NCBI RefSeq assembly: GCF_001644705.1
Contig: NZ_CP015137.1
Span: 330,001 to 362,000 of the forward strand
Direction: 5' to 3'
Length of the DNA: 32,000 nucleotides
Source of the DNA: Dickeya solani IPO 2222
Lineage (GTDB): Bacteria > Pseudomonadota > Gammaproteobacteria > Enterobacterales > Enterobacteriaceae
The stretch's first letter is position 1; every line of letters starts with the position of its first letter. The notes under the pieces are model-generated. The model made no database searches. It was not told the DNA's origin and saw only the letters and a list, made by a program, of their open reading frames with translations. Of this stretch, positions 5,630 to 18,193 are shown piece after piece. A program made the translations under genes and the position numbers.

Positions 5630-6151
5630 ATGCTGGATTTTGAGTATTTCAAACCGGCAAGAATCCTGTTTGGACCAGGTAAACTGGCGGAGATTGTCAA
5701 ATACATTCTGGAAAACGCCCGCATACTAATAACTTATGGCGGAGACAGCGGCAAAAAATATAGCACGCTGGATGAAATCCGACAGACATTAACCCATTAT
5801 ACCTGCTTCGAACTCGGCAGTATTGACCCCAACCCGCAATATGCGACGTTGATATGCGCAATCAACGCCGTGAAGATGAACAAGATTGATTTTTTGCCGG
5901 CGCCAGGTGGTGGCTCGGTGGTCGACGGAAGAAAATTTATCGCGGCCGCGAGCACACAGGATGATATCTGGAATACCTGGCTTGCCAAAGCGCCAATCCA
6001 GTCTGCACTGATCGGGGGGAGTGATAACATTGCCGACGACCGGCTCAGAAATGAACGCAACCACCGTAGTATTCCACAAATAATCCGGTGCCAAATATGC
6101 CGTTTCCGGGCACGCACCTTACCGTTTTTAGACATCCGTCACGCCGATTAA
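5630..6151 (+). pseudogene. Iron-containing (YqhD/butanol-dehydrogenase-like) alcohol dehydrogenase, frameshifted and truncated
   Basis: The first ~128 codons look like group III ADH (FEYFKPARILFGPGKL...ITYGGDSGKK...DPNPQYATL...DFLPAPGGGSVVDGRKFIAAA). After the G6 run at 6014-6019, homology continues in the +1 frame (VITLPTTGSEMNATTVVFHK), which stops at TAA 6081-6083. Only ~170 of an expected ~385 codons remain. Confidence 0.75.
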
Positions 6152-14667: not shown

Positions 14668-15006
14668 TTCTCGCTCACCTAAATAAAAATCACATTATTA
14701 GTGTATTAATTTAATATTGAGAGCATCATTTATATTTGAATAGAATAACCATTGTACTTAATAGCAGATAAAGATATTGCCGCACGGATGTCTTGCTATC
14801 TCCATCTGACAACACCGGCTGTTCATCCCCACATTACCGCCTCCAGCAACCCCGTGTTTGCTGATAACTGAGCCATCACCCATCGCTGCCATCACCATGT
14901 GGCAGCTGGTTTAATGACAGGCATATAACGCGAGACAACGCGTGAAAGCATCCTGTTATCTCCGCCGTTATTACTCTGCCTGAAAAACCAACGACTGGAC
15001 TCACAC

Positions 15007-15318
15007 ATGAATGAAACAGATAAAAGCATCGTCTCTCTATTTATCATCGGCACGCTGATTGCCGCCGGCAAAGTGCTGGCGGGCAGCGAGCCCATCACAC
15101 TGCGGCTATTTATTGGTCGCGTGATGCTGGGCGGTTTTGTCTCAATGATGGCAGGCATCGCACTGGTACAGTTCCCTGACCTGTCGCCCGTCGCTATCAA
15201 CGGCATTGGCGCCGCACTGGGCATCGCCGGCTACCAGACTATCGAACTGCTTATTCAACGCCGTGTTCGCCAACTGGGCAAAAAAAACACACCAGGGAAA
15301 AATAACGATGCTCAATAA
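15007..15318 (+). CDS. Class I (three-TMD) phage-type holin
   Basis: ORF track, 103 aa. Three hydrophobic segments (SIVSLFIIGTLIAAGKVLAG; LRLFIGRVMLGGFVSMMAGIALV; VAINGIGAALGIAGYQTIELLI) are followed by a basic tail, QRRVRQLGKKNTPGKNN. Its 3' end overlaps the endolysin start by 11 nt. Confidence 0.8.
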   Translation: MNETDKSIVSLFIIGTLIAAGKVLAGSEPITLRLFIGRVMLGGFVSMMAGIALVQFPDLSPVAINGIGAALGIAGYQTIELLIQRRVRQLGKKNTPGKNNDAQ

Positions 15319-15796
15319 TCCTAACCTTATTGCGTTTTTAGATATGCTGGCTTTTTCCGAAGGGACCGCAACACATCCGCTCACCTGTAATCGTGGCTAC
15401 GACGTGATTGTCACCGGGATTGATGGCAAACCAGAGATTTTCACCGACTATCGGGATCATCCATTCGCCAATGGCCGTCCGGGCAAAATCTTCAACAAGC
15501 AGGGGCAGCGATCCACCGCTGCCGGACGCTATCAGCAGCTTTACCGCTACTGGCCCGCCTACAAAACGCAGTTGGCGTTGCCGGATTTCGGACCCCATTC
15601 GCAGGATACGCTGGCTATCCAGCTGATTCGGGAACAGCGTGCGTTGGACGACATTATGCAAGGCCGGCTTACCCTCGCCATTACCCGATGCAACAACATC
15701 TGGGCCTCATTACCGGGGGCTGGCTATGGCCAGCGCGAGCATAATGCCGAGCGATTGGTCGCCGTGTACCAGCAAGCAGGTGGGAGACTTGAATGA
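15308..15796 (+). CDS. Lambda-R-type endolysin (lytic transglycosylase, GH104-like)
   Basis: From Met35 of the track ORF: MLNNPNLIAFLDMLAFSEGT...GYDVIVTG...FTDYRDHPF...STAAGRYQ...LPDFGPHSQDTLAIQLI...RCNNIWASLPGAGYGQREH is colinear with phage lambda R as I remember it, including the catalytic Glu in SEGT. There is no N-terminal TM/SAR segment. Confidence 0.9.
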   Translation: MLNNPNLIAFLDMLAFSEGTATHPLTCNRGYDVIVTGIDGKPEIFTDYRDHPFANGRPGKIFNKQGQRSTAAGRYQQLYRYWPAYKTQLALPDFGPHSQDTLAIQLIREQRALDDIMQGRLTLAITRCNNIWASLPGAGYGQREHNAERLVAVYQQAGGRLE

Positions 15797-16233
15797 AAAG
15801 CGCCATGATCATCGCGGCCATCATGATTGCGCTTATCACAGGGGTTGGCGTGCAGTCCTGGCGGCTGCACAACGCCCGTCAGTTAACCGAACAGCAAGCG
15901 CAGACACTGTCGTTGCAACAGACAGCGCTGGATGAAAAATCCGGCCAGTTGAAAGCGCTGTCCGAACAGGCTGAACGCAACAATCTTGAGCAGGCACGAT
16001 TGCGCGACATGGCCGCCGATACTCAGGCGGCGCTCTCGCAACGGCAAAAAGTGGTGATGAGGTTACAACATGAGAACGAAGCGCTTAAACGCTGGGCTGA
16101 CACTGATCTGCCTGCTGATATTATCCGGCTGCGTCAGCGCCCCGCCTTCGCCGGTGGCCGTGCTTACCGTGAATGGCTGTCCCAGACTGACGCCCTGCCG
16201 GTTCCCGGCGGCCAGTCCACAAACCAACGGTGA
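15793..16233 (+). CDS. i-spanin (Rz-like)
   Basis: ORF track, 146 aa. N-terminal TM (AMIIAAIMIALITGVGV) followed by a long Gln/Ala/Leu-rich coiled-coil-like periplasmic part. ATGA overlap with the endolysin stop (15793-15796). Confidence 0.8.
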   Translation: MKSAMIIAAIMIALITGVGVQSWRLHNARQLTEQQAQTLSLQQTALDEKSGQLKALSEQAERNNLEQARLRDMAADTQAALSQRQKVVMRLQHENEALKRWADTDLPADIIRLRQRPAFAGGRAYREWLSQTDALPVPGGQSTNQR

Positions 16234-16405
16234 GCTGAACAGTCTGCTGGATGAAACTGAAGCCGCGCTGGCGACTTGCGCCGATCAGGTGGATACCATT
16301 ATTGCCTGTCAGGCAAAAAGCGATGCAACGCCCGACGCCACTGCTGCATCAGGGAATCAACCAGGCAGAGATTCAACAGGGATAGGTACGTCTGTGCCGC
16401 AATGA
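16070..16405 (+). CDS. o-spanin (Rz1-like outer-membrane lipoprotein), overlapped architecture
   Basis: ORF track, 111 aa, in the +1 frame of Rz. Lipobox LLILSG|C. The mature N-terminus is Pro-rich (VSAPPSPV...CPRLTPCRFPAASP). SD GAGG lies 8 nt upstream. It starts inside Rz and runs 172 nt past the Rz stop. Confidence 0.75.
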   Translation: MRTKRLNAGLTLICLLILSGCVSAPPSPVAVLTVNGCPRLTPCRFPAASPQTNGELNSLLDETEAALATCADQVDTIIACQAKSDATPDATAASGNQPGRDSTGIGTSVPQ

Positions 16406-16844: not shown

Positions 16845-17042
16845 TTAATCGTTCTCTAACGCACGCTGAATAATATCAGCGGTTTGAGTGATTCTACTAC
16901 CGATCGCATCCAGAGCGACTTGCACACCACTTTCGCTGGCACCCTCTTTGATGATTTCGAGTATAGCTGAGACGACTATCTCTCTCTTCTCTTCATCACT
17001 TCTTGCGACATCATGCTGATCATAAAAATAATTCTTAAGCAT
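16845..17042 (-). CDS. Small acidic helical protein of unknown function (65 aa)
   Basis: ORF track. Excellent SD (aAAGGAGtctttATG) and its own terminator. No signal peptide or TM. Family not recognised. Confidence 0.6.
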   Translation of the reverse strand: MLKNYFYDQHDVARSDEEKREIVVSAILEIIKEGASESGVQVALDAIGSRITQTADIIQRALEND

Positions 17043-17293
17043 AAAGACTCCTTTTCATTATCAATGGGCGCAGCATATCGCTAAGATTATTCTGAATAAA
17101 GCATTATCACAGGTAATCAGTGATCTCCGCGTTTACATGCCTTTCCTCTGCTCAATCGCTGAGCCAAACGCATGGAAAAGCCGTTGTGACCGTAGGTCCG
17201 GAACAAAGACAGCGCAGTCGGGCAGATCGCCAATAACCCTAAGACACTGCTTTTGAGATTATCATTACTTTAGGAGGGTAACGAGATATAAGG

Positions 17294-17480
17294 ATGAATA
17301 GCAGGACGCTAATAGCAGAAATCAGGGCGACGATTGGGAGAACTGATAAGAATTAACGGAAGTCATCAGCACTTTACCCATCCAACCAAACCGGGATTAG
17401 CGGCCATTCCCTACCCTAAGAAGGATTGACCGATAGACACGGTAAAAAGCATCTGGAAATGGCCGCCACTTGCCACATTA
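17294..17480 (+). pseudogene. hicA: hicA-family mRNA-interferase toxin gene, decayed
   Basis: ATG 17294 follows AGGAGG. Frame 0 reads MNSRTLIAEIRA..., then stops at 17354. The HicA-like continuation ELIRINGSHQHFTHPTKPGLAAIPYPKKD*PIDTVKSIW lies in the +1 frame from ~17331 and contains an in-frame TGA at 17427-17429. No hicB follows. Confidence 0.5.
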
Positions 17481-17487
17481 CAGGCAC

Positions 17488-17509
17488 AAAAAAACCGCCT
17501 CGTGGCGGT
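17488..17509 (-). terminator. Rho-independent terminator of the tRNA operon
   Basis: Stem accgcc (17494-17499) / ggcggt (17504-17509) with loop tcgt. On the minus strand it is followed by a T7 run (A run at 17488-17494 on the plus strand). It lies ~48 nt downstream of the tRNA-Leu 3' end. Confidence 0.7.
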
Positions 17510-17556
17510 CATGTTCTTTTATTTATTTTCTTATTCATCAAGGCGTTAGCACATAG

Positions 17557-17640
17557 TGCCCAGAGCGGGACTTGAACCCGCACAGCGCGAACGCCGAGGG
17601 ATTTTAAATCCCTTGTGTCTACCGATTCCACCATCTGGGC
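17557..17640 (-). tRNA. leuZ: tRNA-Leu (anticodon UAA)
   Basis: Reverse complement: GCCCAGATGGTGGAATCGGTAGACACAAGGGATTTAAAATCCCTCGGCGTTCGCGCTGTGCGGGTTCAAGTCCCGCTCTGGGCA. Acceptor stem GCCCAGA/TCTGGGC, anticodon loop TTTAAAA (UAA) and a long variable arm. It is almost identical to E. coli leuZ as I remember it. The genomic 3' trailer is CTA, not CCA. Confidence 0.93.
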
Positions 17641-17722: not shown

Positions 17723-17756
17723 TTACCTTGATGCTACTGCTAAATCGATTTGGATT

Positions 17757-17781
17757 TGCATCGGGAAACGAAACTAGAACT
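17757..17781 (-). pseudogene. glyW: 3'-terminal fragment of tRNA-Gly(GCC) (glyW remnant)
   Basis: Plus strand cgggaaacgaaactagaact (17762-17781) matches the complement of the remembered E. coli tRNA-Gly(GCC) T-arm/acceptor 3' end, CGGGAAACGAGACTCGAACT, at 18 of 20 positions. Similarity stops abruptly afterwards. It sits ~35 nt upstream of cysT, where glyW lies in the E. coli glyW-cysT-leuZ operon. Confidence 0.5.
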
Positions 17782-18193
17782 TAGCTCATAACTCTTTGTT
17801 TTCAAATCGTTTTTTTCACCCTGTTTAACAGGATGGACGGCATTATGGACTAACTCTGAGTATATGGCAAGTCCCTTTATGCAATTTTTTCCTATAAGCA
17901 TTCATGCAAAATGACCCGCATATTCTTCACCTTCCTATTCTTCAAACCTGGTGCTTCCGCGGGGCCTTACCCGCTCCTCTACCAGACCGGTTCCTCTATC
18001 ATGGTCCCCGGGCTGCTTCACGCTGTGCAACAATGTGTGCCGCAGCTGCCGGATGAGATTGGCGTAAACCTTAAAGACGGCTACCCCAAGCATCGGGGAA
18101 AATGGTGCAAGAAGCTTCGTTTTTTTGAAAGCATGGTGCCGGGCCGTCACCCGTTATGAAAAAACGGCCAGAAACGCGCTCTCGATGGTGAAA

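Follow-up and report, generated by a model that had tools for sequence, protein, structure and literature searches.

The 32,000-nucleotide stretch of Dickeya solani IPO 2222 DNA analysed in this study (the window) carries at positions 15007-16405 four uninterrupted lysis genes, encoding a P2-type holin, an endolysin of the lambda-R/P2-K type (named GH104 in the sources), LysB (Rz) and LysC (Rz1), preceded by a conserved non-coding leader (Table 1). The holin and endolysin genes overlap by 11 nt (endolysin ATG at 15308), the endolysin TGA (15794-15796) is joined to the Rz ATG (15793) through an ATGA overlap, and the Rz1 ATG at 16070, preceded by GAGG at a distance of 7 nt, is in the +1 frame relative to Rz. 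The 3′ end of Rz1 at 16405 is situated 172 nt beyond the Rz stop (16233), and the layout is that of the 'overlapped' P2 LysB/LysC architecture, not of a fully embedded gene. An intact set of holin, endolysin, Rz and Rz1 with these overlaps had been claimed in the preliminary description of this DNA, and the sequence bears it out.

Table 1. Features of the lysis cassette and its leader (positions in the window).
Feature	Position	Strand	Product length	Basis
Conserved non-coding leader, putative promoter region	14855..15006	+		multi-species alignment
Holin, P2 gpY family	15007..15318	+	103 aa	PF04550, phrog_175
Endolysin, GH104 lambda-R/P2-K type (lytic transglycosylase)	15308..15796	+	162 aa	PDB 1AM7/3D3D
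Inner-membrane spanin, Rz/P2 LysB type	15793..16233	+	146 aa	phrog_89
Outer-membrane lipoprotein spanin, Rz1/P2 LysC type	16070..16405	+	111 aa	PF23793

The assignments of the lysis genes to families lie far above the chance level. The holin covers the full profile (1-86) of PF04550 (Phage_holin_3_2) with an E-value of 8.5e-46 and matches phrog_175 with 3.1e-41. The endolysin matches lambda lysozyme (1AM7/3D3D) with 1.7e-42, the catalytic Glu being aligned (SEGT to lambda WSEGT); it is 100% identical within D. solani, and 57 collection blocks were indexed with it. The Rz protein, which has a transmembrane segment at the N-terminus and a conserved AYREWLSQ motif at the C-terminus, matches the Rz-like spanins of phrog_89 with 1.4e-38 and is 52-56% identical by tblastn to proteins annotated as LysB or Rz-like spanins in P2-like phages. 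Rz1 matches PF23793 (LysC) with 7e-17 and contains the lipobox LLILSGC. Translation from 16070 yields a proper lipoprotein signal peptide, while the later start chosen by the automatic gene caller (96 aa) yields a protein without one. All the species and phage SEN8 have kept the lipobox and, as far as IIACQ, the LysC domain; as in SEN8, LysC is about 96-111 aa long and overlaps LysB in the +1 frame. An alignment including LysB and LysC of SEN8 indicated that the C-terminal tail of LysC is the sole variable part, in phages as well. The interspecies DNA homology ends at about 16325; a truncation of LysC was considered for this reason and rejected, because this point is the end of the LysC domain and the tail is variable also in phages.

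The cassette has pelL and a tRNA operon as its neighbors. The genes called in this region include no member of the capsid, tail, terminase, replication, repressor or integrase families, in agreement with what had been noted previously. The reported decay of the neighboring hicA is real, even though the match is weak (a 31-aa fragment at 17334-17429, 23.9 bits against PF07927 with a cut-off of 27), and a phrog_5901 gene beside the cassette is a decayed phage-like piece of the same kind. In core Dickeya, a tRNA-Leu(taa) gene is located about 1.1 kb from the cassette. The 3′ half of this gene serves as an active att site, which is occupied in D. zeae, D. poaceiphila and D. dadantii by P2/186-like prophages and in D. 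solani by another myophage. This att site, together with the decayed hicA fragment and the phrog_5901 gene, speaks for the view that the cassette is a functionless prophage relic, either kept intact through repeated recombination with P2-like prophages integrating at tRNA-Leu or not yet decayed. The prophages neighboring the cassette in the relatives are set off from it by a copy of att. No tRNA adjoins the cassette in D. aquatica, D. lacustris or Musicola, indicating that the tRNA adjacency is secondary; an origin as remnant of an old tRNA-Leu prophage was rejected on this ground.

All the Dickeya species examined have the cassette in a syntenic position, and it was found also in Musicola; together with the leader of about 155 nt, it is intact in 11 species of Dickeya and Musicola. 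The pairwise dN/dS was 0.045-0.11 (bootstrap 95% upper bounds of at most 0.17; 346-349 non-overlapping codons), with individual values of 0.01-0.11 for the holin, 0.02-0.15 for the endolysin and 0.11-0.21 for the portion of LysB outside the Rz1 overlap, and the dS of the cassette was comparable to that of the flanking genes cybC and an MCP gene. Since four open reading frames remain intact at dS above 1 with dN/dS of about 0.05-0.1, their evolution is not neutral. The endolysin tree agrees with the species tree, and the orphan endolysins form a single clade, from which the prophage endolysins of the same genomes (80-83% identity to the orphan copies) cluster apart. Gene conversion from the adjoining prophages was rejected on the basis of this tree, this level of identity and the absence of LysB/LysC from the prophages, which thus have no homolog of either spanin to donate. 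At the sensitivity of blastn, the leader has no phage counterpart either. The relic view, to which we give very little credence, is already contradicted by these data. By the same comparisons the cassette is evidently a domesticated module, vertically inherited since before the divergence of Dickeya and Musicola and maintained by selection, not by chance. The selective preservation proposed in the preliminary description is thereby upheld. Three findings had been named there as speaking against it, namely restriction of the cassette to single strains, a prophage context and relaxed selection; all were looked for and none of the three was observed.

The composition of the resident prophages raises another alternative. 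The complete P2-like prophages of Dickeya have the order X-holin-endolysin-57-aa protein-R without detectable LysB/LysC homolog, and the cassette might supply spanins or lysis in trans for such prophages, or might serve as a suicide device for abortive infection, set off by incoming phages. Either role is highly improbable, because a benefit to phages poorly explains purifying selection at the level of the host, most strains being without such prophages, and because the locus consists of nothing but the four lysis genes and includes neither a sensor gene nor one of defence type.

The lysis cassette of P2 and other Peduoviridae (Y, K, LysA, LysB and LysC between X and R) is built from the same families, likewise ordered and just as tightly coupled, and the DNA of Y and K is about 68% identical to that of Wphi, L-413C and related phages. 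The Dickeya cassette differs from that of P2 in that it is located outside a phage, X being absent from its upstream side and R from its downstream side, and has been passed on vertically by the host. It also lacks lysA, for which the ATGA overlap between the endolysin stop and the Rz start leaves no room, and its holin gene is preceded by a non-phage leader of about 155 nt, whereas X of P2 is only 3 nt away.

A P2-derived element with exactly the complementary gene content is known in these bacteria. Dickeyocin P2D1 is a P2-derived R-type tailocin present genus-wide (PMC10719855), and is freed by cell lysis after mitomycin C treatment, with a fall in viability of about 100,000-fold. Its release or lysis genes are unnamed in the tailocin literature searched, in which the sole trace is an uncommented line of a supplementary BLAST table, and no mention of the locus tags of the cassette was found in the literature. 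For D. dadantii 3937, X of the tailocin (2738717-2738920) is directly followed by R (2738996-), and the only homologs listed for P2 Y, K and lysC are RS13615, RS13620 and RS23725 (3101465-3102866), P2 K being 74% identical to the D. dadantii ortholog and a homolog of P2 lysA being absent (PMC10719855, Supplementary file 3). These three genes are the orphan cassette, situated 344 kb from the tailocin cluster of this strain (locus L094 in our collection). In three further complete tailocin clusters (L184-L186), the gap between X and R is 45-68 bp, and tblastn detected none of the holin, endolysin, Rz and Rz1 of either orphan or prophage type; the right half of the D. solani tailocin cluster likewise contained no lysis genes. 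In four tailocin clusters, X thus abuts R exactly where P2 holds Y-K-lysA-lysB-lysC. Three small unassigned open reading frames between A and X of the tailocin cluster are possible unrecognised lysis genes; the small unassigned frames of the clusters gave no match to a lysis family.

The tailocin-type Ogr and the cassette co-occur in Musicola and in each of the Dickeya lineages examined, M. keenii having an intact cassette beside a tail cluster that has lost the stretch from sheath to D. As to the scope of these surveys, a genome scan based on PelL yielded 2 Dickeya loci among 79, the sheath-based protein and viral-contig searches were dominated by P2-like prophages, and the Ogr search reached Dickeya solely via members of the cluster. 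The distance between cassette and tailocin is about 0.3 Mb in Dickeya; apart from D. dadantii 3937, six Dickeya genomes showed a separation of about 250-310 protein accession numbers. The two are close together in Musicola paradisiaca Ech703, in the order U-D-ogr-GGDEF-MCP-DJ1-holin-endolysin-Rz/Rz1, the cassette starting 5.7 kb past ogr, the last tailocin gene, with three cellular genes in between. The cluster is reported to be missing in 7 of 75 genomes.

Taken together, we consider that the cassette probably lyses the producer cell to free P2D1, of which the structural cluster has lost exactly such genes. Since the cassette corresponds to P2 Y-K-LysB-LysC and the tailocin is P2-derived, both belong to the same phage lineage, in support of a role in tailocin release. 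We infer that the cassette is expressed and lytically active and that the release of tailocin depends on it. Against this reading stand the lack of an Ogr or LexA box in the leader, the persistence of the cassette in M. keenii after the loss of tail genes, the small unassigned frames between A and X, and the wide separation of the two loci in Dickeya. By analogy with the phage systems, the holin would build up in the inner membrane and then trigger, the cytoplasmic GH104 transglycosylase would next gain access to the murein and cut it, the outer membrane would be disrupted by the LysB/LysC spanin complex, and the cell would burst to let the assembled tailocins out. There are precedents for such release: in the R/F pyocins of Pseudomonas aeruginosa and carotovoricin Er of Pectobacterium, a domesticated holin and endolysin, with or without spanins, burst the producer and free the tail particles (PMC12961389). 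The pyocin and carotovoricin lysis genes are described as lying within or adjoining the tail cluster, in contrast to the distances of 344 kb in D. dadantii 3937 and 5.7 kb in Musicola.

In the preliminary description, the cassette beside pelL/celZ was put forward as a candidate type-10-like release system, with the remark that both enzymes are substrates of the Out type II secretion system and that the cargo, if any, is not obvious. PelL carries an ordinary Sec signal peptide as judged from its sequence, and PelL and CelZ are established substrates of the Out system. The adjacency to pelL/celZ is missing in D. poaceiphila and Musicola, and the suggested relevance of these two enzymes is thus not supported. 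The tailocin P2D1, overlooked at that time, would be a much better candidate for the cargo, given that its cluster is without exactly these four genes. The term 'type-10-like' holds if it is taken broadly, for any lytic release module that has been domesticated, as exemplified by YenLC of Yersinia entomophaga, but not in any narrower sense: the holin and peptidoglycan hydrolase (with or without spanins) do lie outside a prophage, whereas a dedicated, linked non-phage cargo without other export route was not found at the locus, PelL having its Sec signal and the adjacency being lost. YenLC is also an orphan operon of holin, peptidoglycan hydrolase and two-component spanin outside a prophage; it too lies apart from the island encoding its cargo, a very large complex that is set free through lysis of a subpopulation. 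The Dickeya module differs from the systems of this type in that its hydrolase is a GH104 transglycosylase and not an endopeptidase of the ChiX/PepB type, it has no adjacent regulator gene, and its proposed cargo is itself phage-derived.

Such modules nevertheless lend some weight to the reading of the preliminary description, by which the cassette would act without regard to P2D1 in a subpopulation of cells, either in type-10-like release of a non-tailocin cargo or in general programmed autolysis, and would free toxins, other large proteins of the cytoplasm, DNA or vesicles, since domesticated holin/hydrolase/spanin cassettes for non-phage cargo exist and can be unlinked from the cargo locus. 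The conserved leader, private to the cassette and devoid of Ogr or LexA box, points in the same direction, as does M. keenii, in which the stretch from sheath to D is deleted from the tailocin cluster while the cassette, still intact, outlasts the tail genes. With a dS of only about 0.1 separating the two Musicola species, this loss of tail genes may have occurred recently. We regard a P2D1-independent role as rather unlikely, because no conserved cargo adjoins the cassette (pelL/celZ not being at the locus in D. poaceiphila and Musicola, and PelL bearing its Sec signal), no roeA-like regulator gene is adjacent, the hydrolase belongs to the ordinary endolysins of P2 K type and not to the ChiX/PepB-type endopeptidases, and the exact complementarity with the tailocin cluster would have to be coincidental.

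Conservation of the leader, for which alignments of 6, 7 and 11 species were prepared, starts sharply at TGTTTGCTG (14855-14863) and includes CCATC-rich blocks; two blocks, TGTTTG.TG and CTG.T.TAAT, show no variation among the 11 species, including Musicola with a different upstream gene. The leader is the putative promoter of the cassette, with an extended -10-like element, CTGGTTTAAT, at 14906-14915; should this element function as the -10, the 5′ UTR would be about 85 nt in length, with the transcription start predicted near 14922. No phage homolog of the leader was detected at the sensitivity of blastn, and no Rfam family matched within it. The whole leader gave z = -4.3, a value for D. 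solani alone; a structured leader RNA was rejected, because the RNAalifold hairpin, in spite of two covarying pairs, was unremarkable in energy (z of +0.55 to -1.65 in three species). The late promoters of the Dickeya P2-like prophages have perfect Ogr boxes (TGT-N12-ACA); this box is absent from the leader, in which none is conserved even at one mismatch, and an Ogr-dependent late promoter in front of the holin was therefore rejected. The sequence CCATCGCTG, which agrees over 9 nt with the inner part of a prophage P_F Ogr box, and the 8-9-mers CATCCTGTT and TATTACTC in common with the leader of the tailocin sheath gene, were set aside as being at chance level with different spacing. The leader contains no LexA box; the candidate CTGGTTTAATGACAG has the wrong spacing and is unconserved in the alignments of 6 and 11 species. 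The leader motifs did not recur in the intergenic regions of the tailocin cluster, and co-regulation with the tail genes through an Ogr late promoter or the SOS response was thus not detected at the sequence level.

With regard to this private leader, we propose only tentatively that the cassette is a host-controlled device for programmed lysis, in effect a lytic type-10 system, uncoupled from Ogr-driven late transcription, by which the cell would pick the timing of the burst and the subpopulation, and which may release other large cytoplasmic complexes, DNA or vesicles besides tailocins. Control of this kind would account for the survival of the cassette in M. keenii after the deletion of tail genes.

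Dickeyocin P2D1 and its relatives are studied as weapons in the competition of soft-rot pathogens and as possible biocontrol agents. If the cassette is the release module of the tailocin, deletion of its four genes should give a tailocin maker without lysis, and such a non-lysing producer would be useful for learning what tailocin production costs, how it is regulated and what its subpopulation dynamics are. The two loci would then also represent a clear case of an ancestral set of phage functions divided between separate places in the host genome, with the lysis half retained by selection through the whole history of two genera. The same interpretation may explain strains that release no tailocin despite an intact tail cluster, such as D. 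dianthicola A260-S21-A16, in which the tail cluster is intact and no tailocin is produced.

The four lysis genes downstream of pelL have the coordinates and anatomy claimed in the preliminary description, overlaps and frames included: the holin and endolysin genes overlap by 11 nt, the endolysin stop and the Rz start overlap as ATGA, and Rz1, with GAGG ahead of its start, lies in the +1 frame and extends beyond the Rz stop as far as 16405. This is the same "overlapped" arrangement as that of P2 LysB/LysC, but P2 lysA has no counterpart in the cassette. Likeness to phages at the DNA level starts at the holin start codon and is limited to Y and K, which are about 68% identical to those of Wphi, L-413C and further Peduoviridae, and the endolysin is named GH104 in databases. 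Judged by sequence, the family assignments are unambiguous, and the matches to Y, K, LysB and LysC, together with the absence of lysA, identify a P2-type Y-K-LysB-LysC module. In the usual sequence of events the holin would act first, followed by the transglycosylase and then by the spanin. The endolysin shares 100% identity with a protein of D. solani for which the index gives 57 blocks of the collection of assemblies, and window positions 5308-25796 match a D. solani contig without differences. Genes for phage structure, replication or integration are absent among the neighbours of the cassette in the window, and the claim that no prophage surrounds it stands.

Features of the cassette and its surroundings (window coordinates)
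Feature	Position	Strand	Description
Fe-dependent alcohol dehydrogenase gene	5630-6151		173 aa
Leader	14855-15006		about 155 nt, upstream of holin
Leader hairpin	14931-14966		GCGAGACAAC...GTTATCTCCGC, in putative holin 5' UTR
Holin	15007-15318	+	PF04550, P2 Y family, E 8.5e-46
Endolysin	15308-15796	+	lambda lysozyme 1AM7 match, E 1.7e-42, catalytic glutamate aligned
Rz (LysB type)	start 15793	+	phrog_89; LysB proteins annotated in P2-like phages, 52-56% identity
Rz1 (LysC type)	16070-16405	+	PF23793 LysC; lipobox LLILSGC
65-aa gene	16845-17042	-	phrog_5901 (function unknown)
hicA fragment	17270-17429		frameshifted; between cassette and tRNA
tRNA-Leu(taa)	17556-17640	-	terminator 17483-17512
One flank of cassette			flhDC, MCP gene, MatE gene, cybC, celZ, pelL
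Other flank			65-aa gene, frameshifted hicA fragment, tRNA-Leu(taa), tRNA-Cys
Beyond the tRNAs			MatE, MaoC, metallo-beta-lactamase, P450, NRPS

An intact cassette occupies one position, cybC-[celZ-pelL]-cassette, in D. solani, D. dadantii 3937, D. dianthicola, D. undicola, D. oryzae and D. zeae, and it is likewise intact and syntenic in D. aquatica and D. lacustris, which branch early, and in D. poaceiphila, where celZ and pelL are missing at the locus; the endolysin is found in addition among protein-cluster members from D. fangzhongdai, D. chrysanthemi and D. ananatis. In Musicola keenii and M. paradisiaca the orthologous cassette is intact as well, in a neighbourhood different from that in Dickeya. 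The proposed linkage to plant cell-wall enzymes is therefore not supported, given the missing celZ/pelL in D. poaceiphila and the other neighbours in Musicola. Pairwise Nei-Gojobori dN/dS was 0.01-0.11 for the holin, 0.02-0.15 for the endolysin, 0.11-0.21 for Rz (Rz1-free part only) and 0.10-0.34 for Rz1, of which dS is distorted by the overlap with Rz. For 346-349 concatenated non-overlapping codons omega was 0.045-0.11 (bootstrap 95% upper bounds ≤0.17), remaining low in pairs with dS of 1.2-1.6, and cassette dS is similar to that of cybC and the MCP gene on its flank. In the neighbour-joining tree of endolysins the Dickeya orphan copies form one clade that branches as the species phylogeny, and the endolysins of complete P2-like prophages in the same genomes fall outside it. 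The dN/dS, the flank-like dS and this tree show vertical inheritance under purifying selection, and the selective preservation first suggested is upheld by a cassette that is genus-wide, at the same place throughout Dickeya, intact in Musicola and with dN/dS ≤0.34 in every gene. The same three results rule out a decaying relic or a copy refreshed from prophages; a neutral relic or prophage-driven gene conversion, contradicted by selection and phylogeny alike, is most improbable.

D. dadantii 3937 makes the R-type tailocin dickeyocin P2D1, encoded by a 22-kb cluster homologous to P2 tail genes (PMC10719855). Clusters of the P2D1 type are reported from all of Dickeya and from M. paradisiaca, and are taken to be older than speciation (PMC11974492). 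Release of P2D1 after mitomycin C lowers viability about 100,000-fold (PMC12297226), a loss indicating that the tailocin is freed by lysis; holin, endolysin and spanin go unmentioned in these papers. According to Supplementary file 3 of PMC10719855, which gives the best D. dadantii 3937 homolog for each P2 protein, the X homolog is RS12035 (2738717-2738920), the next P2 homolog listed is that of R, RS12040 (2738996-2739457), starting 75 nt past X, and the Y, K and lysC homologs are RS13615, RS13620 and RS23725 at 3101465-3102866. The latter locus is the ortholog of the window cassette, 344 kb from the tail cluster. The gene order in P2 is X-Y-K-lysA-lysB-lysC-R. With X next to R, the tailocin cluster is thus without precisely the segment held by the orphan cassette.

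Three complete tailocin clusters taken from IMG/VR, one identical to that of M. paradisiaca Ech703, agree with this arrangement: the order is A ... X|R-V-W-J-I-H ... FI-FII ... U-D(-ogr), one cluster (L185) ending short of ogr, and X and R are spaced by 45-68 bp in all three. Searches by tblastn with the orphan and prophage holin, endolysin, Rz and Rz1 gave no match in any of them, and none of their few small unassigned ORFs matched a lysis family in Pfam or PHROG. In D. solani the right half of the cluster, MFS-Smr-fibre/invertase/fibre-chaperone-sheath-tube-E-E'-T'-U-D-ogr-guaD, likewise holds no lysis genes. We favour, with moderate confidence, the reading that the cassette would serve as the tailocin system's lysis half, placed apart from the structural cluster; a specific, directly testable candidate cargo, tailocin P2D1, is now identified. 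Domesticated lysis cassettes freeing tailocins or toxins are a known kind; that of Dickeya is previously undescribed, its split layout is unusual and its conserved leader is its own. Within the D. solani cluster (L180 2264-4705), two Collar tail-fibre C-terminal genes that face in opposite directions around a resolvase/invertase gene, with a fibre chaperone next in line, look like an invertible host-range switch of the tailocin. A tape-measure-like gene is of 364 aa in D. solani vs 737 aa in M. paradisiaca (L182 5981-8194).

In Musicola the two loci lie near each other. In M. paradisiaca Ech703 the order is sheath-tube-E-T-U-D-ogr-GGDEF-MCP-DJ1-holin-endolysin-Rz/Rz1, with 5.7 kb from ogr to the cassette start, and the Musicola ogr-(guaD)-GGDEF-MCP segment is syntenic with D. 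solani as far as the MCP gene. In six Dickeya genomes the cassette and the tail cluster are about 250-310 protein accession numbers apart; every Dickeya lineage sampled, D. poaceiphila and D. aquatica/lacustris included, has the tailocin-type Ogr, and hence the two loci co-occur in these lineages. In M. keenii the sheath, tube, E, T and U genes and most of D are cleanly deleted (L179 3157-3806 vs L182 3768-9538 of M. paradisiaca), which should abolish tailocin production, with ogr and the cassette intact; dS between the two Musicola species is about 0.1, too close to judge constraint after this loss.

The leader is kept in every species, with an abrupt start at TGTTTGCTG, and its blocks TGTTTG.TG and CTG.T.TAAT are invariant in 11 of 11 sequences, Musicola included; the second block has the form of an extended -10 (TGnTTTAAT). 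Since it is kept in Musicola despite a different upstream gene (DJ-1/PfpI rather than pelL), the leader is part of the module and moved with the cassette. Neither a phage homolog nor an Rfam match of the leader was found. A sequence search of it detected no Ogr or LexA box, unlike the late promoters of Dickeya P2-like prophages with their perfect TTGT-N12-ACAA Ogr boxes, and no motif common to the leader and the tailocin intergenic regions. These absences, and the M. keenii cassette without tail genes, are the weak points of the tailocin reading. The private non-phage leader and the retention in M. keenii are also the best support for a type-10-like release of other cargo or for general autolysis, and YenLC of Y. 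entomophaga shows that cassettes of this sort can lie apart from their cargo; with pelL/celZ set aside, however, no conserved candidate cargo adjoins the cassette, and we regard this explanation as unlikely. Two base pairs of the leader hairpin vary on both sides between species, and its folding energy is unexceptional. The Musicola DJ-1/PfpI gene (L182 14843-15544), directly upstream of the cassette, matches phrog_18258 (E 2.6e-122) and may be a phage-borne moron brought along by a prophage.

A P2/186-like prophage with integrase, repressor, Fil, DUF2732, TraR-like protein, Dam and gpA starts directly after the cassette in D. zeae, D. poaceiphila and D. dadantii CP110362, and an unrelated myophage occupies the same spot in D. 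solani GCA_020406975. In all of these genomes the tRNA operon terminator and the 3' 53 nt of tRNA-Leu (window 17464-17608) are copied between cassette and prophage, which places the cassette outside these elements and marks the tRNA as an integration hotspot for several phages. An intact tRNA was not found within 10 kb past the cassette in these genomes and is presumably displaced to the far end of the prophage. The reading of the cassette as a remnant of an older prophage at tRNA-Leu is ruled out by D. aquatica, D. lacustris and Musicola, which have it without an adjoining tRNA. Complete P2-like prophages elsewhere in Dickeya genomes (L088-L092; e.g. L088 9505-11134) have the order X-holin-endolysin-57-aa membrane protein-R-S, with endolysins just 80-83% identical to the orphan one; tblastn detected no LysB/LysC-type spanins in them, and the orphan spanins could not have come from such prophages. 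Resident prophages without spanins are the sole positive evidence for a phage-helper or abortive-infection role, which we hold to be highly unlikely. The 57-aa product is a two-helix membrane protein of phrog_8494.

The 65-aa gene, kept in D. solani, D. dianthicola and D. dadantii, and the frameshifted hicA are probably leftovers of earlier integrations. The Fe-dependent alcohol dehydrogenase gene, of 173 aa in D. solani vs 384 aa in D. dadantii 3937, has probably become a truncated pseudogene in D. solani. Comparison of window 17723-18190 with L001 6925-7194 and L015 7572-7844 gave a tRNA operon Gly-Cys-Leu in D. undicola and D. oryzae and Cys-Leu only in D. solani, D. dianthicola and D. dadantii. 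Homology to the other species ends at the start of the MatE/MaoC/metallo-beta-lactamase/P450/NRPS island, immediately upstream of tRNA-Cys.
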